From the sequence record MH791409.1: 64,000 nt of DNA; one strand, given 5' to 3'. The position numbers and the translations under genes are program-made. This stretch comes from Escherichia phage EcWhh-1. The notes under the pieces are model-generated. The model was not told where the DNA came from. It did no database searches and saw only the letters and a program-made list of their open reading frames with translations. Positions 19,888 to 63,802 of the stretch are shown piece by piece (positions within the stretch are counted from its first letter, which is position 1; each line of letters opens with the position of its first letter).

Positions 19888-20016
19888 CTTAATTCCTCGG
19901 TTGATAGCCTTATCGACTATCTTCCGAACTTCTCGTTTCTCGAGCCACACTAATAATAGCAAGCCTCCGAAAGAGAATAATAACAAACCTATAAAAAGCA
20001 ATAGAGGACCTAGCAT
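19885..20016 (-). CDS. single-pass membrane micro-protein, 43 aa
   Basis: Below cutoff. GAGGA SD. ATG 20016 overlaps the upstream stop by 7 nt. MLGPLLLFIGLLLFSFGGLLLLVWLEKREV... Confidence 0.45.
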   Translation of the reverse strand: MLGPLLLFIGLLLFSFGGLLLLVWLEKREVRKIVDKAINRGIK

Positions 20017-20903
20017 ACTACGTCCTCATAACGTGGCATTTCGTATTCAGAATGAATATTGGCACCGAAATAAATGAATTCAGCCAGACCAGGATGGAAT
20101 ACTAAACCTGGGTTCTCATGATAAATGATATGTGGTCTTGATTTCAGAATTTGATAATATTCAACCTTACTCGGTTTGAATTTAATAATCTCTACATCAG
20201 GACGATAGTCTTCGCGCTTAAATGAATCATTAGGGTCGGTGATATAAAGACGAGCACCTTCAGCGGCAGCTTGGTCTACAACTCTTTCGAATTGATAACA
20301 CTTATCCGAAATACGGAATGGATGGAAAATACCATCAATTTTAATAGGCGCTAGACCTTCAGAGTAACGCTCAATTACTGCAGGATTAATTACCTTTTGG
20401 TCTACAAAAATCTTATCAGAGGATGCACCTCGTGACATCAGGACGTCTTTCTGGCATTGATTCAAGACTGTAGTATAAAGTGAACGTTCAACTGAAGCCA
20501 CATCAATATCAATGAACTCGTCGATATAATAACGAGGAACTTCAGGGTCCATTGTGATATTAAAGTTGAATTGTACAGTATGAGCACCATCATAACCGGT
20601 GATATCGGTCACCAGTCCTGAGCAATCATAGTATTCGATTAGTGAATCGACTACAAACTCATTTTCAGACCAGAAATGTTTACGGGTTTCATAAGCATTT
20701 TCTTTATACCAAAGTGGTACGAAATTCAGTTCTGGGAATAATTCAATGCATTCTTTGATATCGCTCGAATTTCTAGGATAAGCCAGATAATCACCTGGAC
20801 GAGCACGATTTAAATGGAGTTGAAAATTACCGTCCTTAAGGACGGCATATTCACCTGTTTCGTAACTACGCATACTGAAAATAGGAACGATAAACAAACT
20901 CAT
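20010..20903 (-). CDS. orphan 297-aa protein in the beta-glucosyltransferase slot; candidate hmC glycosyltransferase
   Basis: ATGA-coupled to gene 42. Not alignable by eye to T4 beta-gt, except for a loose GT-B-like block IFHPFRISDKCYQFERVV versus T4 GGSFRSGQRESKMVEF. Confidence 0.35.
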   Translation of the reverse strand: MSLFIVPIFSMRSYETGEYAVLKDGNFQLHLNRARPGDYLAYPRNSSDIKECIELFPELNFVPLWYKENAYETRKHFWSENEFVVDSLIEYYDCSGLVTDITGYDGAHTVQFNFNITMDPEVPRYYIDEFIDIDVASVERSLYTTVLNQCQKDVLMSRGASSDKIFVDQKVINPAVIERYSEGLAPIKIDGIFHPFRISDKCYQFERVVDQAAAEGARLYITDPNDSFKREDYRPDVEIIKFKPSKVEYYQILKSRPHIIYHENPGLVFHPGLAEFIYFGANIHSEYEMPRYEDVVC

Positions 20904-21598
20904 TTCAGGAAACCTCGGACGTAGTCAAAATCACGTTCAAACACGTGTGCACTTACCATGGTGTGGGAATATGTACCTAAACCGACACCACACTGTTCAG
21001 CAATAAATGCCATCAGTTTACCCTGCAGATAGAAATCCAGCTGCATAACAACGGCGCAGTTTTGTGAACGCATATGAGTGTGTGCATACAGACGTCCATC
21101 ACGAATATAATATGTTACCGAATCGGTACACGGATATTCTAGGGATTCGTCAGAATCAAGGAGGGCTTGGTCTTGTTCTTGGAGAATTTGGAACACAACT
21201 CGTCTCGAGTTAGGCTTTTCTTTAAGCTCTTTAAGTAGGGCTGGGAGTTGGGCCACAATTCGAGGGCCATAGAAAGTGTTGAAGTTTGCAGGCAATACGT
21301 CACTTTTCGGCTTATCAATGAACTTAGCAACATTAGGGTATTCCTTAAATGCTTCGGCAGCGTCAGTACCACCAGAAATCATAAATTTCCAAAAGGATTC
21401 GGCATATTCATAACTAATACGATTGATACGTGGGTCGGTGAATTTATAGGTGCTTGCATCCAGTACTTCTACCGAAGCAGAACCAATTTCATAACAACGT
21501 CCGATACGAGAATCAACTGCAAACTGTGGAGCTTCCAGGATTTCTTCGTTCATTTGTTTAAATGCATTTTCAAAACTAACAGCGGTAATGTGTTTCAT
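20900..21598 (-). CDS. 42: thymidylate-synthase-family deoxypyrimidylate hydroxymethylase (divergent gp42)
   Basis: 232 aa. Conserved blocks: KPNSRR, YPCTDSVTYYIRDGRL, HMRSQN, SAHVF. Lies at the T4 gene 42 position, but is much more diverged from T4 gp42 than its neighbours are from their T4 counterparts. Confidence 0.7.
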   Translation of the reverse strand: MKHITAVSFENAFKQMNEEILEAPQFAVDSRIGRCYEIGSASVEVLDASTYKFTDPRINRISYEYAESFWKFMISGGTDAAEAFKEYPNVAKFIDKPKSDVLPANFNTFYGPRIVAQLPALLKELKEKPNSRRVVFQILQEQDQALLDSDESLEYPCTDSVTYYIRDGRLYAHTHMRSQNCAVVMQLDFYLQGKLMAFIAEQCGVGLGTYSHTMVSAHVFERDFDYVRGFLK

Positions 21599-22131
21599 TT
21601 ATTCACCTTATTTTCAATATATTCGTTCAGACGTTTTAATTCTACCATATCAACATTAAGCAAATTATTATGGCCGTCATGATTTAAGATTTTAAACACG
21701 TTTTCAAAACATGTTTCGTATTGCCGGATAGTTAGGTTGAACTCATCTTTGGTTAATTTAATAAGGTCGTCTTCGAAGTCTTCGTCTAATGGATTGCGAG
21801 TTAAAATAACCTCGATAACGTTAAATTCGGATTTAAACCCTTTCCAATCTTCCAGTTCTACATAAGGGTCCATTTCACCACGAAGGAATCCTGAGTAAAC
21901 AATATTACTTGGATAACCACGGTCAAGGATATAAACGAAATTAGGGTCTAAAAACTTATACAGAGTTTCAACTAAAGCCTTATCGTTATCAGTTCCTAAT
22001 GAAATACACTTGCCATTAATCTTTTTAGGAAAATCAATAAGGCGGTATTTCTTATTGGATAACAGATTTTTAATTAAAGTGGACTTCCCGGAATTATCCG
22101 GGCCGTCTATAACAATGATTTTTGGATTCAT
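21595..22131 (-). CDS. P-loop (thymidylate/dNMP kinase-like) kinase
   Basis: 178 aa. Walker A VIDGPDNSGKST, DRG motif. ATGA overlaps at both ends. Confidence 0.55.
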   Translation of the reverse strand: MNPKIIVIDGPDNSGKSTLIKNLLSNKKYRLIDFPKKINGKCISLGTDNDKALVETLYKFLDPNFVYILDRGYPSNIVYSGFLRGEMDPYVELEDWKGFKSEFNVIEVILTRNPLDEDFEDDLIKLTKDEFNLTIRQYETCFENVFKILNHDGHNNLLNVDMVELKRLNEYIENKVNK

Positions 22132-22511
22132 GGATGATAGGCCTTATAACTATCAAGAGTTCCTTCACGAACCATTTCTTTAAAGTGGTCAGGACGGATT
22201 GCTCGGTCATCGATGATAAAAGTATAACTCGGCTTATGCGTAAGCAGATTATGATATTTCAATCCAATCTTTTCAAGGTTCTTAACCAATGCAGGAACTA
22301 CTTCAACCAAGATTCGACCTGGGCCACATGAAGTCATGCCACGGGCAGTGAATAATGTAATCTCGTACCCTTCATCATAAAGCTTATTAATCATGGACAC
22401 CATTTCGGTGTCCGGTTTAAAGTTCTCATAATCACGGTCATGGTTCCAAATCGTGATTGTGTTATCGATATCAAAACATAAATGTGGCTTATTTTCTACT
22501 CGATGCGACAT
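22128..22511 (-). CDS. HAD-superfamily phosphatase
   Basis: Motif I FDIDNTIT, motif II LFTAR, motif III KPSYTFIIDDR. ATG 22511 is TAATG-coupled (alternative start ATG 22526). Confidence 0.6.
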   Translation of the reverse strand: MSHRVENKPHLCFDIDNTITIWNHDRDYENFKPDTEMVSMINKLYDEGYEITLFTARGMTSCGPGRILVEVVPALVKNLEKIGLKYHNLLTHKPSYTFIIDDRAIRPDHFKEMVREGTLDSYKAYHP

Positions 22512-24184
22512 TAAATTTTCTTCCATTGTTTGTGGAGTTCAGTAGAACCTGTAGGTTTATATTTTACACCAGTTTCCTGGTCAAGCAAAACCCACTTATC
22601 AGGACAACGAGTAATAATTTGAGCCGTGATAGGGTCACGAACTTCATCGACAAATTCACCAGTAATAAGCTTACGCTTATGAGGATGCCGCTTCAGCAGC
22701 ACACTCAGTTGATACAAACCGTTATAATAAGCACCCAGAGCTTTCAGAGGGTTATTCTTAAAGTAACCTGCCAGCGCCATCCAAATAACAGCAATCCAGA
22801 GCTTGTGCTTAAATGTGCACATAGGAATATCGTCTAAAGGCATAACCTTTTCGATATCAACGAATACACGAGTTCCGTTACGAGTTAATCCACCCCATAG
22901 AGGGTCTGAGTTAAATTTGTCATAGCCATCGATAGAATAAAGCACCTTAGCTTCATCATAAATCGCAGGGCCTTTAGAACTATTACCGAAATAACCACGT
23001 GGGTCGATGATTTTAATATCACCTTCGTCCGACAGCATAATATTACTGTAGTGCGGGTCGCCATGAATAAGTTGGTACGGTTCTTTATGTTCAGACAGAA
23101 TTTCTAGTGCATGGCGGAGAAGTTTTTCGGGGTCGCCTACTTTGAAATCGTTAACATAGGTAATGCCCTGTGGAGCAAAGCCTTCAATCAATCCGGCAAT
23201 AGAAGCATTACGAATAAGGACCTTGTCCAACACTTCTTTCTTAACATCGGAATACCATTGCTCATCGGACGGGTTATCGATAGTTCCACCGAATGAACGT
23301 AATGCACTAATGACCTTATAAACCATGAGGACTTTAGTTTCTTTGGACATAAACCGGTAGGCATCTGCCATGGTACGACCAAAGATACGTTCCATTTTAA
23401 TGAATTCGCCTGGAGAAAAGTCTACAATGCTAGGAACGAATTCAGAATCAATAGAATTATACCAATTGATTTCTTTAGATTGAATTTCTTTACCTAATTC
23501 GTTAGTTGGTACTTTAATAGCCAGATTCTCGGTGAACTCTAATTTATTAAATTCACGGTTAATTTCAGAATCTTCATGGGCCTTGGCAAGTTTCAATTTG
23601 TCACCGACATCAACTACAAAATCCAGTTTACGTTCAGTCAAATAGACCATTGAATCCAGGTTATCAGCAAGGTCTTCGCCATAATTAGAACGGTCGAAAC
23701 CTGTCCAATTGGCTACCTGATACAAACCAACTACACCGCCACCGGTACCAATTTCACGTAAGTACGGTTCTTCAAATGTAAAGCGACAGTCAGTTCCATA
23801 GGTATAACAATAGTCGTTACCCCATTCAACTTTATGACCGATAGGAATGATGTCACACCAGTTAAACAGGACATTATGGCCAATGATATCTTCGGCAATG
23901 CAATCGATAGCATGAGCTGAACCATTAGCAACATCAACGTTACGAATAGTGAATTTAGGCTTATCACCAGTAATCATGTTAATGGATTTAATATAGCCTT
24001 TAACGAGGTCGTTAAATTTGCTGTGAATAACCAGAATAATTTCATCTGATTGGTTACTATACAAATCATACAAATGTTTTAATACCGTATGTTGTTTGTA
24101 GTTAACCAATACCTTTGGGATTTCGTTAGTAATTGGATACAACCGTGAGCCAAGACCTGCGCCTAAAATAACAACCTTTTTCAT
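22511..24184 (-). CDS. bifunctional sugar-1-phosphate nucleotidyltransferase / APH-choline-kinase-like kinase
   Basis: Start at ATG 24184 (GAGGAA SD). N-terminal VILGAGLGSRLYPIT...PKVLV (GxGxRL NTase). C-terminal LIHGDPHYSNIM...IIDPRG (Brenner HGDxxxxN plus Dxx). Confidence 0.65.
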   Translation of the reverse strand: MKKVVILGAGLGSRLYPITNEIPKVLVNYKQHTVLKHLYDLYSNQSDEIILVIHSKFNDLVKGYIKSINMITGDKPKFTIRNVDVANGSAHAIDCIAEDIIGHNVLFNWCDIIPIGHKVEWGNDYCYTYGTDCRFTFEEPYLREIGTGGGVVGLYQVANWTGFDRSNYGEDLADNLDSMVYLTERKLDFVVDVGDKLKLAKAHEDSEINREFNKLEFTENLAIKVPTNELGKEIQSKEINWYNSIDSEFVPSIVDFSPGEFIKMERIFGRTMADAYRFMSKETKVLMVYKVISALRSFGGTIDNPSDEQWYSDVKKEVLDKVLIRNASIAGLIEGFAPQGITYVNDFKVGDPEKLLRHALEILSEHKEPYQLIHGDPHYSNIMLSDEGDIKIIDPRGYFGNSSKGPAIYDEAKVLYSIDGYDKFNSDPLWGGLTRNGTRVFVDIEKVMPLDDIPMCTFKHKLWIAVIWMALAGYFKNNPLKALGAYYNGLYQLSVLLKRHPHKRKLITGEFVDEVRDPITAQIITRCPDKWVLLDQETGVKYKPTGSTELHKQWKKI

Positions 24185-24244
24185 TATCTGTTCCTCAAGT
24201 GAATGTAGGTACATTATACACTATTTTTAATAAATTTCTATTGC

Positions 24245-24745
24245 TTAAATCTTATCTTTACCGTATTCCATGCACTGTTCTACTGCAGCAGGCACTTTGG
24301 TCTTAAGCTTGTTGATTTGTTTCTTATAATCACGAGCCTTATCGAAGCTCTCGGTTTCGAGCATTTCGTAATAACGAGCCTCGTGGACAGAAATCTGTAG
24401 ATTGATATGGTTTACACACATGGCATACAGTTTCTGCTTTTTGTACAAATCATCTTGGCGCTTCATTTCTGCCTGGTGTTTGGCTAGTACCGCTTCACGC
24501 TTAGACTCTTGTTCACGTTGGAATTCGATTTCCCTTTGAGCATATTTTGCACAGTTATTACCACATTGATTATTAGCTCGGGTGTACACAAGTCCAGAAC
24601 CGGCACGGAATTTCATTTCGCCGTCGAATTGTTTCTGTTCAGCTGCGATACGAGCTTTACCAACTTCATCAGCAGAAACTGCATCACCGTATTGGACTGC
24701 GCAACCTGATAGGAGCATACTCATTGCGATAATTAACTTTTTCAT
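24245..24745 (-). CDS. predicted lipoprotein, 166 aa
   Basis: MKKLIIAMSMLLSG|C lipobox. Coiled-coil-like, charged mature part. Confidence 0.6.
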   Translation of the reverse strand: MKKLIIAMSMLLSGCAVQYGDAVSADEVGKARIAAEQKQFDGEMKFRAGSGLVYTRANNQCGNNCAKYAQREIEFQREQESKREAVLAKHQAEMKRQDDLYKKQKLYAMCVNHINLQISVHEARYYEMLETESFDKARDYKKQINKLKTKVPAAVEQCMEYGKDKI

Positions 24746-31324: not shown

Positions 31325-31350
31325 ATTATAAATCAATATTTTAAAGCAAT
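31325..31350 (-). promoter_or_regulatory. MotA-type middle promoter
   Basis: ATTGCTTTA (31350-31342), 11 nt, TATAAT (31330-31325). Confidence 0.6.
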
Positions 31351-31542: not shown

Positions 31543-33221
31543 TCTAACACCGTGAATCGCCCAACTTTCTTCATTTGAAGATGTTGGCCATAAGCTTGTG
31601 GGTCATGGTCTCGGTGAGAGATAATGAACACGTTCGTATCCTCAAGGCTATTCAAGATGGTTGCAATGCTCTTAACGCCTTCAGAATCCGTGGCACTGTC
31701 AAATACCTCATCAAGAATCAGTGTGGATATATTAACACCTGATACCCTAGAAGCAATATCACGCCATGTAAAAAGTAGTGCGATATCAATACGTGCTTTC
31801 TCACCCTGTGAAAATGAAGCATAACTAAAGTCTTCACGTCCACGTGATTTAATCGTCTCATTGAATTCTTCGTCTAGGGTAAAGACGTAGTCCGCTTCCA
31901 TAATCTTCAAATAAGAATTAATCTGCTTATTAAAGATAGGAATGTATTTCTTAATAATGGAACCTTTAATACCTGTATCCTTCAACATTTCTGTCAGAAT
32001 TCCACGATGATATTTTTCCATTACCAAGGACGATTTGGTAGAGACGATTTTATCAAGCTCTGCTTGAAGCGCAGCAATCTCTTCGGCATTACTTACGAAC
32101 TCAGCTGCCGCTTGGTCAATTAATACCTTAACCTTTTTGGCTTTCTCTACAGCAGTAATGGCTTGCTGCTTATGAGTAGCTATCTGAGATTTAATAGCCA
32201 ACGCTTTATTGCGTTGTTCTGTTACTTGGTCTTTAATGAGCTTGAGCTCTTGGTATTGCTCATTAATCTTATCCAAAGATTTTTGAAGCTCAAAGTTTTT
32301 ATCCTTAATTTTAGTAAGGATATTACCATGCTCTTCTAACCCTTGCATACACGTAGGGCAGTGACCACCGGTTTCGTATAACTTAACCACCTTTGTAAAG
32401 GTTGCCATATCATTTTTGATTGCAAATCCTTTATTACTCAGGTCACTCATGGAATCGCTAGGGTCATCATCTACGATAACATTGAGTAATTCATCAGTCA
32501 GGGATTCTATGCTCGCCTTAGCAGTCCTGGCTTCTTTAACGAGCTCATCATACATTAATTGTAGACGGGCAGCGTTTTCGCCAGATAATTTACGTTGACG
32601 TTCTTCGTTGTCATTATAAATTTTAATTTGTTGGGTAATAGAATCTTGCTTAACGTCTATTACTTGGATTTGGCTATTAGTCTCACGAATCAAAGATTTG
32701 TTCAACTTATCCATATCCGCCAATACAGAAACCTCTAAGAGGTCTTCGACGAGTTTTCTTCTTGCAGGAGTGGATAGGCCCATAAAAGGGGTATATCCAG
32801 CTGTGCCGAGTACGACAATTTGTTTGAAGCTTGCATAGGACATTCCGATAAGCTGTTCAAATTCCGCTTGGAAGTCTTTACTGCTGGCAGATTCATCAAG
32901 ACGTTCACCGTCACAAGAGATTTCAAAAACGTTGGGTTTTTGCCCGCGTTTGATATAGTATTCTTTGCCATCATATTCCATCCACAGTTCGACCAAAAGG
33001 TCTTTCTTGTTACTTGAGTTAATCAACTGCCCTTTCTTAACATCACGAAAAGGCTTACCGAACAGAGCAAATGTTACAGCTTCAAGGAATGTTGATTTCC
33101 CTGCACCATTTTTACCAGTGACTAAGGTCTTTTGGACCTTATCAAGTTGGATTGTAATGGGCTGCTGCCCGACCGACATAATATTTTTATACGTTACTTT
33201 CTTTAACTTAAAAGTCTTCAT
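31539..33221 (-). CDS. 46: recombination endonuclease subunit (Rad50/SbcC-like)
   Basis: Start at ATG 33221 gives 560 aa, colinear with T4 gp46 (GKNGAGKST, FSQGEKARIDIALLF, LILDEVFD). Confidence 0.95.
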   Translation of the reverse strand: MKTFKLKKVTYKNIMSVGQQPITIQLDKVQKTLVTGKNGAGKSTFLEAVTFALFGKPFRDVKKGQLINSSNKKDLLVELWMEYDGKEYYIKRGQKPNVFEISCDGERLDESASSKDFQAEFEQLIGMSYASFKQIVVLGTAGYTPFMGLSTPARRKLVEDLLEVSVLADMDKLNKSLIRETNSQIQVIDVKQDSITQQIKIYNDNEERQRKLSGENAARLQLMYDELVKEARTAKASIESLTDELLNVIVDDDPSDSMSDLSNKGFAIKNDMATFTKVVKLYETGGHCPTCMQGLEEHGNILTKIKDKNFELQKSLDKINEQYQELKLIKDQVTEQRNKALAIKSQIATHKQQAITAVEKAKKVKVLIDQAAAEFVSNAEEIAALQAELDKIVSTKSSLVMEKYHRGILTEMLKDTGIKGSIIKKYIPIFNKQINSYLKIMEADYVFTLDEEFNETIKSRGREDFSYASFSQGEKARIDIALLFTWRDIASRVSGVNISTLILDEVFDSATDSEGVKSIATILNSLEDTNVFIISHRDHDPQAYGQHLQMKKVGRFTVLE

Positions 33222-33471
33222 CGTTATAAGCATCCTTGATGCATGATTCAGCCATATGAATTAATGTTTCTGGAGTATCATCTACCATTACATTAAAGCT
33301 AAATTCTACAGCCCAATCGGTAGCAACATAAACTTTAATAAGCTCGTTGGTATCGCGAGTGCTCACGGCTTCAAACCAGAACTTAATTGTACTAGGTTGA
33401 CCATCATCATCAATAACTATACAGTCGTGTTCCAGTTCAAGTCCCGATTTTTTGAATTCATCTAAAGTCAT
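33208..33471 (-). CDS. hypothetical protein, 87 aa (46.1 slot)
   Basis: ATGA overlap with the gene 47 stop. Confidence 0.5.
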   Translation of the reverse strand: MTLDEFKKSGLELEHDCIVIDDDGQPSTIKFWFEAVSTRDTNELIKVYVATDWAVEFSFNVMVDDTPETLIHMAESCIKDAYNDEDF

Positions 33472-34490
33472 CGTGTAACCTCATTATAAAGTTGTGCAGC
33501 CATAGTCTTAAGGGCTTTAACATCGGCTTCAGTGTGGCCATCAGGAAGGGCATCGATATAATCATACATCATATCCAAGAGGGATTTAACTTCGTCTTCC
33601 TCTTCAGAATCATCGATATCAACACTATTATCTACCTTAGACACAATACGTAAAGAGTGAACAACCTTTTCAAGCTCTGATTCGAACTTAGTAAGACCGT
33701 CATCGATTTTATCGACTATAACACGAACTGCGATATTTGTAAAATCTTTGTAATCGATAGTCTCGTTAGGATAATGAATCTTACGATGCCAACAGGTTTC
33801 ATTAATGATGAAATCCATTTTATGAGTTTCGGTATCGAAAATCCAGAAACCACGAGGGTCGTTCTCATCGCCTGCAGTAAGGGTCCATGGAGTACCAATG
33901 TACTTGACGTTTGCTGCATCAGAAATAGTGTGGAAGTGGCCTGACCAAACTTGCTTATACTTTTTAAGGAAATCAGGTTCTAAACCATGAGATTTCATTC
34001 CTTTATAGAAATAGAAACCATTTAATTCCCAATGTCCAATACAGAAATCTGCTGTGGTATTTTTGATATGGTCCATGATATCGGTCGTGTTTTCTTCACA
34101 CATCCATGGAATCAAATCAATTTCGGTGCTATCAAAGTTAACAGTAGTAGGTTTTTCAATAACCTTGATATGGTCATATTTACCCAGAACTTCAGAAGCT
34201 GCGTTCGGAGTCAATGTATTTTTGTAGTGGGCATCATGGTTCCCGACAACGGTATACATGGTGATGCCATTGGTTTTAAGCAAATCTGAAATATGCCGAG
34301 CAAATTCCATACACTTATGAGTAATTGCTTTACGAACGTCAAAGATATCACCATATTGAATCCACACGGTAATACCATTTGCTTTAGAATAATTGATAGC
34401 ATCTTTAATGCCGGACAATTGAATGTTTTGGACCCAAGGGTCGTCGTTCTTAACTCCAAGGTGCCAGTCACCTGTGTTTAATATTTTCAT
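33468..34490 (-). CDS. 47: recombination endonuclease subunit (Mre11/SbcD-like)
   Basis: Start at ATG 34490 (MKILNTGDWHLG). Phosphoesterase motifs GDIFD, GNHD, GHFH. Confidence 0.95.
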   Translation of the reverse strand: MKILNTGDWHLGVKNDDPWVQNIQLSGIKDAINYSKANGITVWIQYGDIFDVRKAITHKCMEFARHISDLLKTNGITMYTVVGNHDAHYKNTLTPNAASEVLGKYDHIKVIEKPTTVNFDSTEIDLIPWMCEENTTDIMDHIKNTTADFCIGHWELNGFYFYKGMKSHGLEPDFLKKYKQVWSGHFHTISDAANVKYIGTPWTLTAGDENDPRGFWIFDTETHKMDFIINETCWHRKIHYPNETIDYKDFTNIAVRVIVDKIDDGLTKFESELEKVVHSLRIVSKVDNSVDIDDSEEEDEVKSLLDMMYDYIDALPDGHTEADVKALKTMAAQLYNEVTR

Positions 34491-34630
34491 AAGCCGAGCA
34501 CCGTTATCGCAATGCAAAATAAAATTATTGAGATGAACCCATCAGGAGTAGAAAAGAATCCTATCCAACAGGCTCGTGTGAATGTGTAGAATGCCATGAA
34601 TAACACGACATATCCTAAAAGTAATTCCAT
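34487..34630 (-). CDS. membrane micro-protein, 47 aa
   Basis: Below cutoff. GAGGAG SD. ATGA overlap with the gene 47 start. MELLLGYVVLFMAFYTFTRACWIGFF... Confidence 0.5.
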   Translation of the reverse strand: MELLLGYVVLFMAFYTFTRACWIGFFSTPDGFISIILFCIAITVLGL

Positions 34631-34672
34631 ATGTTCTCCTCAGTTGGTTCATTTTATCATCCTAATATAAAG

Positions 34673-34696
34673 CAAAAAAGGAGCCTAAGCTCCTTT
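34673..34696 (-). terminator. rho-independent terminator
   Basis: AAGGAGC-UUAG-GCUCCUU plus a U6 run on the minus strand. Confidence 0.65.
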
Positions 34697-34858
34697 ACCA
34701 ATTAATACGCCATACAGAGGTTCATGAGAAGACCTGAACTTGATAGGCTTATAGGTAATAGTACCTTCATTTTCCGCTTTAATACGAGCAGCTTCAAATT
34801 TAAGTATCATCTCATTTTTGTCAGATTTAATCTTATCAAAATCCATCGAATTCGTCAT
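34685..34858 (-). CDS. hypothetical small protein, 57 aa
   Basis: Below cutoff. AAGAGG SD. MTNSMDFDKIKSDKNEMILKFEAARIKAENEG... The stop lies in the terminator stem. Confidence 0.4.
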   Translation of the reverse strand: MTNSMDFDKIKSDKNEMILKFEAARIKAENEGTITYKPIKFRSSHEPLYGVLIGKGA

Positions 34859-34946
34859 TCATAAAACCTCTTAAACTTTTTCGTATTCGTCATTCATAGC
34901 TTAAAAATCCGGATGTTCGTCTTTCATTAGCCACCTGTCCATGTTA

Positions 34947-35147
34947 TCATCGTTGCCACCACTTCTTAAGTTGATGTGAATCCACCCAAACCTTGGCTAC
35001 AGGCTCAATCCGAAAAATTTCATCGGAATACTGCCCAACCATTTTATATTCGGTTTCAGTCTGCTTAATACAAATATTACCGTATGAGCGAAGTCTGAAG
35101 GCGGCTCCAATAAGAAGCCTTTTAAAGGGTTTATTTACTAGCGCCAT
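34947..35147 (-). CDS. hypothetical protein, 66 aa
   Basis: Start moved to ATG 35147 (MALVNKPF), 17-nt overlap with the upstream gene. Weak SD. Confidence 0.4.
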   Translation of the reverse strand: MALVNKPFKRLLIGAAFRLRSYGNICIKQTETEYKMVGQYSDEIFRIEPVAKVWVDSHQLKKWWQR

Positions 35148-35442
35148 TGATAATTTCCCAAATCTGTTTACGCGTAGTTTCCCACATAACTCTAACGATT
35201 TCGTCAGTAGTCGGTTGACGGTAAATACCACGTAATTTAATTATAGCATATTTGTAAGCTTCGAAATTGTTTTCGAGAACAGCGCCCTGAGCATGTGTAT
35301 TAAGACGCTTAATTTCACGGGCATTCTTTTTAAGAATTTTGGCAGCTTGAGAAGCGGCTTCTTTAGCATTATTCTCTTCTAAACGCTTCTGGGCTTCTTC
35401 AATTTGCTCTTCGGTCAATTGAGAAATGTCGGTGCTTTGCAT
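35131..35442 (-). CDS. hypothetical protein, 103 aa
   Basis: Helical and charged. Tightly packed downstream of the gene 55 operon. Confidence 0.55.
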   Translation of the reverse strand: MQSTDISQLTEEQIEEAQKRLEENNAKEAASQAAKILKKNAREIKRLNTHAQGAVLENNFEAYKYAIIKLRGIYRQPTTDEIVRVMWETTRKQIWEIINGASK

Positions 35443-35443
35443 A

Positions 35444-35671
35444 TTAATCCTTGTAATTCAGTTTTATATAAAAATCTTCGTCGGTAACGTGATAGTTATA
35501 AGTTAATGTTCCTTTTTCAGCTTTAATTTCTACCGAATCAGGGTGTTTTGGGTCTATTACAATAGGAAGCTTGGCAATATCCTTAAGATACATTTTAAGA
35601 ACATAAGGAATTGCCGAATACTCTCCATCTACTTCTTCTAAAAGGCCTACCAGGTTAATCTTGAGTTCCAT
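35444..35671 (-). CDS. hypothetical protein, 75 aa
   Basis: The track start is TTG. The first ATG is 35671 ([10 protein letters not shown]), which overlaps the gene 55 end. Confidence 0.45.
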
Positions 35672-36212
35672 ATAAAAAATCCAGCTCACCAACTTTAGAT
35701 TCGGCGCTCTTATCAGACCCTGGCGCTTTAACTAAAGAGGTTTCATACTGAGTCATTTTGTCGTAAATATCCTGGATAAAAGTTTCATCTGCGATACCTA
35801 CCATGTCGTCGTCATTGGCGTCATAAACGTTATGGACGAAGTAGCTGTATTTCTTTGCCATTTCTTTACGTTCTTTCTTGATACGCTGAACAAAGGCATT
35901 AAAACAAGCCATAGTGATATATGCATGCGGGTTGTCGTATTTTGTTTCGTCGAAGTTATGAAGACCTTTAATAGAGGCTTCGATTCCATCAGCAATCATT
36001 TCTTGCTTCCAAGATTGGGTATATCCGGAGAAGTTGAAACGCTTAGAAAGGCCTTCAGCAATGAGCATAATAGCCAAGCCGATAACGTCGTTCTGACGAA
36101 CTATTTTATTAGGGTCGGTATTTTCTCGGAGTTCTGTTTTCCACTGGGTAATGGCTTTCAGAAGCTCCTTATTATTTACATAGTTATTTTTAGTCAGTTT
36201 AATTTCGGTCAT
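35655..36212 (-). CDS. 55: late sigma factor gp55
   Basis: 185 aa. NNKELL...[48 protein letters not shown] is near-identical to T4 gp55. Confidence 0.96.
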
Positions 36213-36243
36213 TGTTACCTCAGATAACTCAAATCATAGGTCT

Positions 36244-36278
36244 ATTATATCATAGTATTTGGAGACCCGTTTAAAGCA
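36244..36278 (-). promoter_or_regulatory. MotA-box promoter region upstream of gene 55
   Basis: gaTGCTTTA (36278-36272), 14 nt, TACTAT (36257-36252). An overlapping TATAAT lies at 36249-36244. Confidence 0.45.
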
Positions 36279-36542
36279 TCAACGGAGTAAGCAATAAGCC
36301 TGAAATACTGTTTCAAGGATTTGTATGAACTCGGGATAAGAAATTGTATCAGTACATCCATGTTCGGACATATATCCGCAAAATTCTTTAAAAAGTTCCG
36401 GATAATCCCGATGGTTGTATTTGGAAATATGAGACTTCCATACTAAAGAAGTCTCACCACAAACAAACTCAACATCCATACAGTTATCTATTAAGAAAAA
36501 TCCGAGACCTTCATAAGCGAGGGTGGTGGATATGGGTTTCAT
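36279..36542 (-). CDS. hypothetical protein, 87 aa
   Basis: Coding-strand ORF with a 4-nt overlap onto the upstream gene. Confidence 0.5.
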   Translation of the reverse strand: MKPISTTLAYEGLGFFLIDNCMDVEFVCGETSLVWKSHISKYNHRDYPELFKEFCGYMSEHGCTDTISYPEFIQILETVFQAYCLLR

Positions 36543-52662: not shown

Positions 52663-53101
52663 AATCTACCACCACTAAATTAATATCAGGAGTAAACAAA
52701 TTAATCAATTGATAAACCTTGTCCCAATCACCACCAGCAATACCACAACCGATACGAGGGATATAAATTCTTGGTTTAAACAAAAGACCCTTTGCGGTAC
52801 GGTTTAATTCTATCATACAGTTTACTAAAGCACCGTAATCAAGATTAGGACCTGGTTCGTATTGGGTGTATAAATTATAGCAAATTTGGCCCTTATTACC
52901 TGTGGCTTGAGTAAACGTGCCAAGTTTTTCCAAATGGCCTAAATAAGTGGTTTTATCGATAGCGAGAATAGGCGGATAAGCCTTAGCCAATTGTCCGGCT
53001 ACACCTGAACCCATTGTGTGGAAACAGTTGCACCCGTGCGCAACATTATTGCCTTGAAGAAACAGGGCGACGATATCGCCCTTAATATAATCAATAATCA
53101 T
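52634..53101 (-). CDS. macro-domain protein (ADP-ribose binding/hydrolase)
   Basis: 155 aa. GDIVALFLQGNNVAHGCNCFHTMGSGVAGQL and IPRIGCGIAGGDW motifs. Confidence 0.65.
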   Translation of the reverse strand: MIIDYIKGDIVALFLQGNNVAHGCNCFHTMGSGVAGQLAKAYPPILAIDKTTYLGHLEKLGTFTQATGNKGQICYNLYTQYEPGPNLDYGALVNCMIELNRTAKGLLFKPRIYIPRIGCGIAGGDWDKVYQLINLFTPDINLVVVDYESPLPTSV

Positions 53102-63452: not shown

Positions 63453-63802
63453 GATTTACATTCCTTAATAAAGGTTTCAAGGTCATTACGTTTAGTTTGT
63501 TTTACATACTCATTATAATTAGCCATCTCTAAAGCATATCTCTTACGGATGGGAGCATTCAAAGCATTTGTATGGCAAATATCATACACGAGAGGGATAA
63601 AATAGGCCACAACTGCTGGAGCGATTATCATATAGAAACCCATCTCAATAGGTGTGACTCCTTCGATTACAGCCATAACCACGGTCATTACCAGGCCAAT
63701 TAGGCCACCAAGCATGGCTGTAACAATCCCTAATAATAAATTGGCACCAATATCATATTCAGCCAATTGATAAACATGCGATGAAAGACTAGGCCGTTCC
63801 AT
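63449..63802 (-). CDS. membrane protein, 117 aa
   Basis: Start moved to ATG 63802 (AAAGAGG SD). Three TM segments. Confidence 0.5.
   Translation of the reverse strand: MERPSLSSHVYQLAEYDIGANLLLGIVTAMLGGLIGLVMTVVMAVIEGVTPIEMGFYMIIAPAVVAYFIPLVYDICHTNALNAPIRKRYALEMANYNEYVKQTKRNDLETFIKECKS

Follow-up and report, generated by a model that had tools for sequence, protein, structure and literature searches.

The gene 47-55 interval of Escherichia phage EcWhh-1: a conserved T4-type block without a-gt in a Dhakavirus with RB69-type arabinosylation genes

The window analysed in this study is a 64-kb stretch of the genome of Escherichia phage EcWhh-1. It belongs to a JS98-like Dhakavirus, with 97.5-98.3% nucleotide identity to JS98, IME281 and UP19. 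The interval between genes 47 and 55 (34491-35654, 1,164 nt) contains ORFs of 47, 57, 66, 103 and 75 aa and a hairpin; like all features described below, it lies on the minus strand. Its left boundary is gene 47 (33468..34490), which encodes an SbcD/Mre11-like recombination nuclease subunit, matches Pfam Metallophos and PHROG 100 (E=8e-135), and has an ATG start as in the JS98 annotation. Its right boundary is gene 55 (35655..36212), which encodes the late sigma factor (PHROG 234, E=3e-68) and was also compared by tblastn over 1,995 phage records. The Dhakaviruses JS98, JS10, IME281 and UP19 have the same genes in the same order in this interval, with 97-98% nucleotide identity and no difference of substance.

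The ORF adjacent to gene 47 is gene 47.1 (34487..34630), which encodes a predicted membrane peptide of 47 aa with two hydrophobic segments (GRAVY +1.65) and 80% identity to T4 gp47.1 (PHROG 6693, E=1e-30). It is preceded by a ribosome-binding site, GAGGAG (34641-34636), located 5 nt upstream of the ATG. The 47.1 stop and the gene 47 start share 4 nt (ATGA), and 47.1 is predicted to be translationally coupled to gene 47 through this overlap. In some Dhakaviruses (NC-G and Ec2-ASingh), a homing-endonuclease-like ORF of approximately 204 aa is found instead of 47.1. The remaining four ORFs are a-gt.2 (34685..34858, 57 aa), 58% identical to its T4 counterpart (Pfam DUF5486, E=2e-20); a-gt.3 (34947..35147, 66 aa), 45% identical (PHROG 1648, E=2e-28); a-gt.4 (35131..35442, 103 aa), 43% identical (Pfam DUF2654, E=1e-24); and a-gt.5 (35444..35671, 75 aa), 51% identical (Pfam DUF5491, E=1e-18). 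The JS98 annotation names the same five genes, 47.1 and a-gt.2 to a-gt.5, as found here. As in T4, a-gt.5 shares 17 nt with the 3' end of gene 55. Because each of the five ORFs matches a curated family (Pfam DUFs, or PHROGs 6693, 2140, 1648, 951 and 1169), they are real genes and not chance reading frames. Their order, their strand and both overlaps between genes 55 and 47 are as in T4, and they are orthologues of T4 47.1 and a-gt.2 to a-gt.5, not fillers or replacements. A literature search on 47.1 and a-gt.2 to a-gt.5 found no papers.

An unannotated gap of 88 nt (34859..34946) separates a-gt.2 from a-gt.3. T4 a-gt.2 starts with MVATVKDEHP and overlaps T4 a-gt.3, whereas the gap here, by direct reading and comparison with T4, holds a relic of a T4-type a-gt.2 N-terminus (ATG-KDEHPDF-stop). 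A 17-nt direct repeat, ATGAATGACGAAT[A/T]CGA, is located in or at this gap, at 34897-34881 and 34862-34846.

Comparison of the T4, RB32 and JS98 layouts with aligned junctions places the true a-gt slot in the 54-nt spacer between a-gt.2 and 47.1 (34631..34684). The spacer sits exactly where T4 has a-gt and mobB and RB32 has a-gt. At its upstream end, a terminator scan and folding identified a terminator-like stem-loop, AAAGGAGC-TTAG-GCTCCTTT (34677..34696), with 8 pairs (4 of them G-C) followed by TTTTTT; the a-gt.2 stop codon TAG falls in its loop. The sequence-only reading had placed a terminator in this interval. The hairpin and T-run are indeed present, but considered alone they are statistically weak: the fold has z=-1.28 relative to shuffles, and the scan gave 3 terminator-like sites against 1.6 expected. 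The real evidence for the hairpin is its conservation across genera. A stem-loop is found at the matching place after a-gt.2 in T4, RB32, RB69 and NC-G, and the RB69 stem (GGAACTC/GAGTTCC) is unlike that of T4, yet pairs.

The stem-loop is followed by a MotA-type middle-promoter motif (34651..34674) in which 11 nt separate TGCTTTA (34674-34668) from TAAAAT (34656-34651). Transcription is predicted to begin around 34644, ahead of the GAGGAG at 34641-34636. For the pattern TGCTTNA-N11-13-TANNNT, the window has 9 occurrences where 3.4 would be expected (none of 100 shuffles yielded as many as 9), and TGCTTTA followed after 11-12 nt by TAAAAT is conserved in T4, RB32, RB69 and NC-G. The whole unit of hairpin, Mot box and TAAAAT follows a-gt.2 in five lineages, each with a different next gene: 47.1 here, the homing-endonuclease-like ORF in NC-G, 47 in RB69, a-gt in RB32 and mobB in T4. 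No promoters or terminators are annotated at the T4 interval in NC_000866 or AF158101; the regulatory reading therefore draws on motif and conservation. An Rfam search covering 34300-35900 (E<=1) produced just two matches, both far under the gathering scores, and the late promoter TATAAATA was absent from both strands of 33000-36500. The hairpin would end or attenuate transcripts running from gene 55 through a-gt.2, and the Mot box and -10 element would restart MotA-dependent middle transcription into 47.1-47-46.

In T4, the gene order is 47 / 47.1 / a-gt / mobB / a-gt.2 ... 55, and that of RB32 is identical without mobB. T4 and other Tequatrovirus members share with the present phage the orthologous genes 47, 47.1, a-gt.2 to a-gt.5 and 55, the 4-nt 47.1/47 and 17-nt a-gt.5/55 overlaps, and the hairpin, Mot box and TAAAAT unit after a-gt.2. 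They differ in the insertion after this unit of a-gt (400 aa) and mobB in T4, or a-gt alone in RB32, a stretch of approximately 2 kb that is absent here. In addition, T4 and RB32 have a second, similar hairpin and GCTTTATA unit before 47.1, while a single unit is present in our phage. RB69 (Mosigvirus) has the order 47 / a-gt.2 / a-gt.3 / a-gt.4 / a-gt.5 / 55 with the hairpin-promoter unit kept and no a-gt, in agreement with the predicted synteny; unlike our phage, it has no annotated 47.1. The a-gt gene is also absent from Karamvirus, Gelderlandvirus and Krischvirus, and it is found in the same slot in the Jiaodavirus Klebsiella phage Mineola, with 66% identity to that of T4. In the 47-55 interval, our phage has the usual small accessory genes of a conserved T4-type block, minus a-gt (and minus the mobB of T4). 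The description of the slot as micro-ORFs plus a terminator was correct as to the elements present, but the ORFs, being T4 orthologues, do not fill it.

The absence of a-gt between genes 47 and 55, where T4 has it, was borne out by tblastn: T4 a-gt, b-gt and mobB gave no significant match across the whole 64-kb window. No ORF of approximately 400 aa lies between a-gt.2 and 47.1/47, which are separated by just 54 nt, and the largest family-matching ORF inside the interval has 103 aa, in line with the earlier judgement that none is long enough for a glycosyltransferase. The best a-gt match (22254-22361, E=0.027, 36 residues) falls in the N-terminus of a HAD-like phosphatase that is 62% identical to RB69 gp51; it was set aside and treated as chance or generic Rossmann-like similarity. 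To cover the relatives genome-wide, we used a chimeric tblastn query joining a Dhakavirus anchor to T4 a-gt, T4 b-gt, RB32 ba-gt and RB69 ORF003c (E<=1e-3). The anchor alone matched in 51 of 51 Dhakavirus records, with no match to a-gt, b-gt, ba-gt or ORF003c, while Tequatrovirus records, serving as the positive control, scored at two places. This confirmed that, leaving aside the gp46:47 type, all four known DNA glycosyltransferase types of T-even phages and RB69 are absent from these 51 records. The lack of a-gt in JS98-type phages is already known and, though correct, ordinary: JS98 was reported to be without glucosyltransferase genes in 2010 (Petrov 2010; PMC2993671).

The slot could have become empty by secondary loss, in which case a Dhakavirus ancestor had a-gt there and lost it cleanly. 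This account concerns history and not present function. A possible route is recombination between the two similar hairpin and GCTTTA units, at the time of a switch from hydroxymethyl to hydroxy chemistry. The stem-loop and GCTTTATA units bracket a-gt in T4 and RB32, and if the two recombined, a lone unit such as the present one is just what would remain; the occurrence of a-gt in precisely the same slot in two genera, Tequatrovirus and Jiaodavirus (Mineola), also fits an ancestral gene. However, tblastn found no a-gt remnant in the spacer, the gene is likewise missing from Mosigvirus, Karamvirus, Gelderlandvirus and Krischvirus, and gain by insertion in Tequatrovirus and Jiaodavirus accounts for the pattern about equally well. 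We regard secondary loss as possible rather than probable.

The unit after a-gt.2 resembles the PeSL/PmSL composite promoter-terminator motifs of T4-like phages (Arbiol 2010, PMC2839356; Comeau 2014, PMC4122927), which occupy the borders of variable, non-essential genes. A PmSL consists of a stem-loop directly before a promoter made up of a Mot box (TGCTT) and a -10 box (PMC4122927). The unit matches this arrangement, with a stem-loop immediately ahead of a TGCTT Mot box that is set at middle-promoter spacing from its -10 box, and it likewise borders varying gene content, with five downstream genes in five lineages. PmSLs have been described for vibriophage nt-1, and we did not find the present unit catalogued as one. 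More speculatively, and on balance improbably, the unit may be a portable recombination junction through which T4-like phages of different genera swap cargo at precisely this site. On this view, the site would have received a-gt in the genera Tequatrovirus and Jiaodavirus, mobB in T4 and the homing-endonuclease-like gene in certain Dhakaviruses, and would be empty in the present phage. If this is true, lineages would have gained or shed glucosylation through the exchange of cassettes at a regulatory motif and not by gradual decay.

The b-gt slot holds RB69-type arabinosylation genes. The first encodes a GT-B-fold glycosyltransferase of the RB69 gp46:47 type (20010..20903, 297 aa), a candidate for the first, and here the only, DNA arabinosyltransferase. 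Across 48 diverse members of its family, 25 residues are invariant, indicating that the family is under selection. Where T4 has gene 42, our phage has a thymidylate-synthase-family enzyme of the 5-hydroxy-dCMP synthase type (20900..21598), which shares 80% identity with RB69 gp48 but only 25% with T4 gp42. The same enzyme matches PDB 9iqu/9iqc with E=1.7e-126 (approximately 85% identity by eye), compared with 1e-5 for T4 gp42 (1b49). The two former entries presumably originate from phage HY126, judging from the HY126 label of the adjacent entry 9iqz and from PMC13326640. The activity of RB69 gp48 has been demonstrated (PMC13326640). In coordinate order, the synthase of our phage is followed by a thymidylate-kinase-like nucleotide kinase (21595..22131, 178 aa) with 38% identity to RB69 gp45 (PHROG 761), and by the HAD-like phosphatase mentioned above (22128..22526, 132 aa), which is of the RB69 gp51/HY126 AfhF type and whose role is taken from PMC13326640. 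The last is a bifunctional sugar nucleotidyltransferase and kinase of the RB69 gp52:53/HY126 AfhE type (22511..24214, 567 aa), in which Pfam NTP_transferase (residues 13-110) and APH kinase (356-427) domains were detected and which is 41-44% identical to RB69 gp52 and gp53.

Homologues of RB69 gp45, gp46, gp47, gp48, gp51, gp52, gp53 and gp54 are present in the window, those of gp45, gp46:47, gp48, gp51 and gp52:53 lying between uvsX and gene 43 as in RB69. No homologue of RB69 gp3, gp49, gp50 or gp55 (arabinose-5-phosphate isomerase) was found within the 64-kb window, and the position of the RB69 isomerase holds an unrelated ORF of 166 aa. RB69 also has ORF003c, the second arabinosyltransferase, which is absent from the window and from the 51 Dhakavirus records; rIIA.1 and gene 39 are separated by just ~40 nt.

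We propose that a-gt is absent because the phage does not make glucosyl-hydroxymethylcytosine. The TS homologue would make 5-hydroxy-dCMP, the bifunctional kinase/nucleotidyltransferase and the HAD phosphatase would make NDP-arabinose, and the single GT-B transferase would put the sugar on 5-hydroxycytosine in DNA. RB69 DNA carries arabinosyl-5-hydroxycytosine in mono- and di-arabinosylated forms (PMC13326640), and Dhakaviruses have been named as sharing the arabinosylation cluster (PMC13326640; Lee 2026). Since our phage has one transferase and no homologue of RB69 ORF003c, the most likely product, as predicted from gene content, is mono-arabinosyl-5-hydroxycytosine, one sugar as opposed to the one or two of RB69. 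Our explanation as a whole is that EcWhh-1 is a JS98-like phage whose T4-type block lacks a-gt and which uses an RB69-type arabinosyl pathway instead of glucosyl-hydroxymethylcytosine; we give it a probability of roughly 85%. The earlier suggestion that the missing a-gt, together with the replacement of the b-gt slot, points to a non-glucosyl modification system is supported by these results.

E. coli itself supplies arabinose-5-phosphate (KdsD/GutQ). As the window contains no gp55 isomerase, gp49 or gp50, the sugar supply would need these host enzymes, or the sugar could differ. The pared-down cluster might make another NDP-sugar, or the DNA might carry bare 5-hydroxycytosine; the missing homologues of gp3, gp49, gp50 and gp55 and the unrelated 166-aa ORF at the isomerase position agree with such an outcome. 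In the literature searched, we found no chemical or nucleoside analysis of any Dhakavirus DNA. However, the three enzymes that form UDP-arabinose in HY126 and RB69 and the first transferase are conserved (41-69% identity), the transferase family is under selection, and arabinose-5-phosphate is available from the host. A sugar other than that of RB69, or none, is unlikely; arabinose on 5-hydroxycytosine is the product that we favour.

The idea that a-gt is functionally replaced by any of the small ORFs, as fragments of a split or degraded transferase or as a new small DNA-modifying protein, is suggested by nothing but their position beside the T4 a-gt site and is effectively refuted by their orthology: all five have T4 orthologues that coexist with a-gt, they occur in RB69, RB32 and Mineola with or without it, and none resembles a-gt, their 47-103 aa being far below the size of a GT-A or GT-B domain.

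The chemistry by which RB69-like clusters replace glucosylation was elucidated from 2018 to 2026, and Dhakaviruses were among the named carriers; the discovery value of the present locus is small. What is added here is that the small ORFs of the 47-55 interval are conserved T4 genes and that the missing cassette is pinned to a 54-nt conserved, putative terminator/middle-promoter unit. The analysis also leads to the prediction that Dhakavirus DNA would carry a single arabinose on 5-hydroxycytosine. This prediction bears on the restriction and defence systems that these therapy-candidate phages may evade or trigger.

In a megablast search of 50,697 phage records, 33400-36300 was matched full-length by Escherichia phages UP19 (98.3%), IME281 (98.1%), and JS98 (97.5%), all of which belong to Dhakavirus. 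Every gene discussed here is located on the minus strand. Gene 47 (33468-34490; Metallophos; PHROG 100, E=8e-135) and gene 55 (35655-36212; PHROG 234, E=3e-68) enclose an interval of 1,164 nt. The sequence-only reading that this interval lacks the T4 α-glucosyltransferase gene a-gt was confirmed by the ORF list and the sequence, with no transferase-sized ORF between the two genes, and by tblastn, in which T4 a-gt, b-gt (β-glucosyltransferase), and mobB (homing endonuclease) had no significant match across the whole 64 kb. The ORF list and sequence also contain the ORFs of 47, 57, 66, 103, and 75 aa and the hairpin, all exactly as that reading described them.

The ORFs and the hairpin are real, but it was a misreading to place the small ORFs in the a-gt slot, because they are T4-type genes. 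By BLASTP, they correspond to T4 47.1 (47 aa, 34487-34630; 80% identity), a-gt.2 (57 aa, 34685-34858; 58%), a-gt.3 (66 aa, 34947-35147; 45%), a-gt.4 (103 aa, 35131-35442; 43%), and a-gt.5 (75 aa, 35444-35671; 51%), and the JS98 annotation already uses these names. The curated families DUF5486, DUF2654, and DUF5491 and PHROGs 6693, 2140, 1648, 951, and 1169 are represented among them. We therefore rejected the idea that they fill an emptied slot. A literature search found nothing on the functions of the 47.1 and a-gt.2 to a-gt.5 proteins; the 47-aa product is strongly hydrophobic (GRAVY 1.65, two hydrophobic segments). The T4 order is 47, 47.1, a-gt, mobB, a-gt.2, a-gt.3, a-gt.4, a-gt.5, and 55, and that of RB32 is the same without mobB. 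Therefore, the window differs from T4 here solely in lacking the a-gt and mobB cassette that separates a-gt.2 from 47.1. Two gene overlaps are common to the window and T4: 47.1 with 47 (ATGA) and a-gt.5 with 55 (17 nt). The unannotated 88-nt gap between a-gt.3 and a-gt.2 (34859-34946) includes ATG-KDEHPDF-stop, which matches the N-terminus of T4 a-gt.2 (MVATVKDEHP...) but is here severed from the remaining gene. A 17-nt direct repeat in this gap, ATGAATGACGAAT[A/T]CGA (34897-34881 and 34862-34846), gives rise to three 8-codon mini-ORFs, and a small duplication appears to have remodelled the 5′ end of a-gt.2.

The true position of the a-gt slot is the 54-nt spacer between a-gt.2 and 47.1 (34631-34684). 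The hairpin with its T-run (34696-34677, minus strand) is a stem-loop, AAAGGAGC-TTAG-GCTCCTTT, whose 5′ arm consists of the final a-gt.2 codons and whose loop includes the TAG stop; on its own, it is not distinctive (z=-1.28). The coding strand 3′ of the T-run contains TGCTTTA, 11 nt, and TAAAAT, followed by a GAGGAG ribosome-binding site 5 nt ahead of the 47.1 ATG. In T4 MotA-dependent middle promoters, 11-13 nt separate TGCTT(T/C)A from a downstream -10 element. The promoter-middle stem-loop (PmSL) is a stem-loop with a TGCTT Mot box and a -10 box downstream (PMC4122927). The pattern TGCTTNA-N11-13-TANNNT has nine occurrences in the window (3.4 expected; at least nine in 0 of 100 shuffles), five of them on the coding strand. 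The other four coding-strand matches, at 21639-21662, 31325-31348, 52807-52832, and 63512-63536 (minus strand), are candidate middle promoters, and one of them precedes the 5-hydroxy-dCMP synthase gene by about 40 nt.

This hairpin-promoter unit is kept directly 3′ of a-gt.2 in four other phages, T4, RB32, RB69, and NC-G. T4 and RB32 have GGAGC-TTCG-GCTCC, TGCTTTA, 12 nt, and TAAAAT, and the next gene is mobB in T4 and a-gt in RB32. RB69 has GGAACTC-TTCG-GAGTTCC, TGCTTTA, 11 nt, and TAAAAT ahead of gene 47; its stem is unlike that of T4, with the pairing retained. The unit of Dhakavirus NC-G is identical to that of the window and precedes an ORF of 205 aa. In T4 and RB32, a second similar hairpin and GCTTTATA unit lies after a-gt, ahead of 47.1. 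The T4 records carry no promoter or terminator annotation at the 47-55 region, which has no Rfam match here, and the late-promoter TATAAATA is absent from the interval. From the motif and its conservation in other phages, we infer that the spacer is a composite terminator/middle-promoter unit, which would close transcripts running from 55 to a-gt.2 and restart transcription into 47.1-47-46.

The occupancy of this site varies among phages. In NC-G (locus L004, 1377-1994) and Ec2-ASingh (locus L005, 1377-1991), the ~204-aa ORF directly 3′ of the conserved unit takes the place of 47.1. It matches homing-endonuclease PHROG 10820 (E=4e-92) and PHROG 314, and its GIY-YIG signal is weak; JS98 and JS10 were reported to be without homing endonucleases (Petrov 2010, PMC2993671). 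Klebsiella phage Mineola (Jiaodavirus; locus L009, 5086-6336) has an a-gt 66% identical to that of T4 between a-gt.2 and gene 47. The presence of a-gt in this slot therefore extends beyond T-even-type coliphages, whereas the 2010 summary had placed it in "T-even type phages only". No a-gt was found in the slot in Karamvirus, Gelderlandvirus, Krischvirus, or Mosigvirus representatives. The a-gt of Tequatrovirus and Mineola, its absence from the representatives of the other genera, and the NC-G swap thus indicate patchy occupancy across genera, which may reflect loss in the present lineage or gain elsewhere.

The window covers 64 kb of the present genome, and relatives were tested in lieu of the full isolate genome. 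A single tblastn query (E<=1e-3) was assembled from five proteins: the 567-aa product of 22511-24214 as a Dhakavirus-specific anchor, T4 a-gt, T4 b-gt, the RB32 DNA glycosyltransferase ba-gt, and ORF003c, the second arabinosyltransferase of RB69. The top-ranked records were 51 Dhakavirus genomes, each with one matching place, the anchor (51/51); Tequatrovirus records, the positive control, had two as expected. Hence, the known T-even glucosyltransferases and ORF003c are not encoded in those genomes. The best T4 a-gt match in the window (22254-22361, minus strand; E=0.027; a-gt residues 3-38) is the N-terminus of a HAD-like phosphatase and was rejected as probably generic Rossmann-like similarity, not homology.

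The a-gt absence is correct, the non-glucosyl modification proposed from it is supported, and both are already in the literature. Petrov et al. reported homologues of genes 42 and 56 but no glucosyltransferase genes in RB69 and JS98 and raised the question of another modification (PMC2993671). Thomas et al. (2018) described an arabose-based modification in RB69, with arabinose replacing glucose (PMC6024577), and Lee et al. (2026) placed Dhakaviruses among the groups sharing an arabinosylation cluster by synteny (PMC13326640).

The interval from uvsX to gene 43, occupied in T4 by segA, b-gt, and gene 42, contains six ORFs in the window. Homologues of RB69 gp45, 46, 47, 48, 51, 52, 53, and 54 are all present there; those of gp3, gp49, gp50, and gp55 were not found in the window. 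The homologue of thymidylate synthase (20900-21598) shares 80% identity with RB69 gp48 but only 25% with T4 gp42 (PDB 9iqu/9iqc E=1.7e-126 versus 1e-5 for T4 gp42). RB69 gp48 has been shown to synthesize 5-hydroxy-dCMP, and in RB69 DNA an ether bond links arabinose to 5-hydroxycytosine (PMC13326640). The 297-aa ORF (20010-20903) is 69% and 65% identical to gp47 and gp46, the first RB69 transferase. It has no Pfam domain; the 117 unnamed clusters that make up its family include one protein from Serratia phage 92A1, a phage listed with arabinosylated 5hodC (PMC13326640). The 567-aa ORF (NTP_transferase and APH kinase domains) and a 132-aa ORF (62% identical to the gp51 phosphatase) fit the roles of the HY126 sugar-activation enzymes AfhE and AfhF (PMC13326640). 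The 297- and 567-aa ORFs are single and intact, versus split gp46/gp47 and gp52/gp53 in the RB69 record, which agrees with the published attribution of those splits to sequencing errors. The 166-aa ORF at the position of gp55, the RB69 arabinose-5-phosphate isomerase (24245-24745 in the window; PHROG 1754, no Pfam domain), is unrelated to that isomerase.

A further variable junction associated with the modification system lies between rIIA.1 and gene 39: it spans ~40 nt here (171-212), an unannotated ~590-bp gap in JS98 (locus L002, 2437-3024), and ORF003c in RB69 (locus L007, 2520-3620).

The RB69-type arabinosylation genes in the b-gt region and the absence of glucosyltransferases support a non-glucosyl modification system. 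As one transferase is present and ORF003c has no homologue, we predict from gene content that the DNA of this phage carries mono-arabinosyl-5-hydroxycytosine, for which, with no isomerase gene in the window, the host would supply arabinose-5-phosphate.
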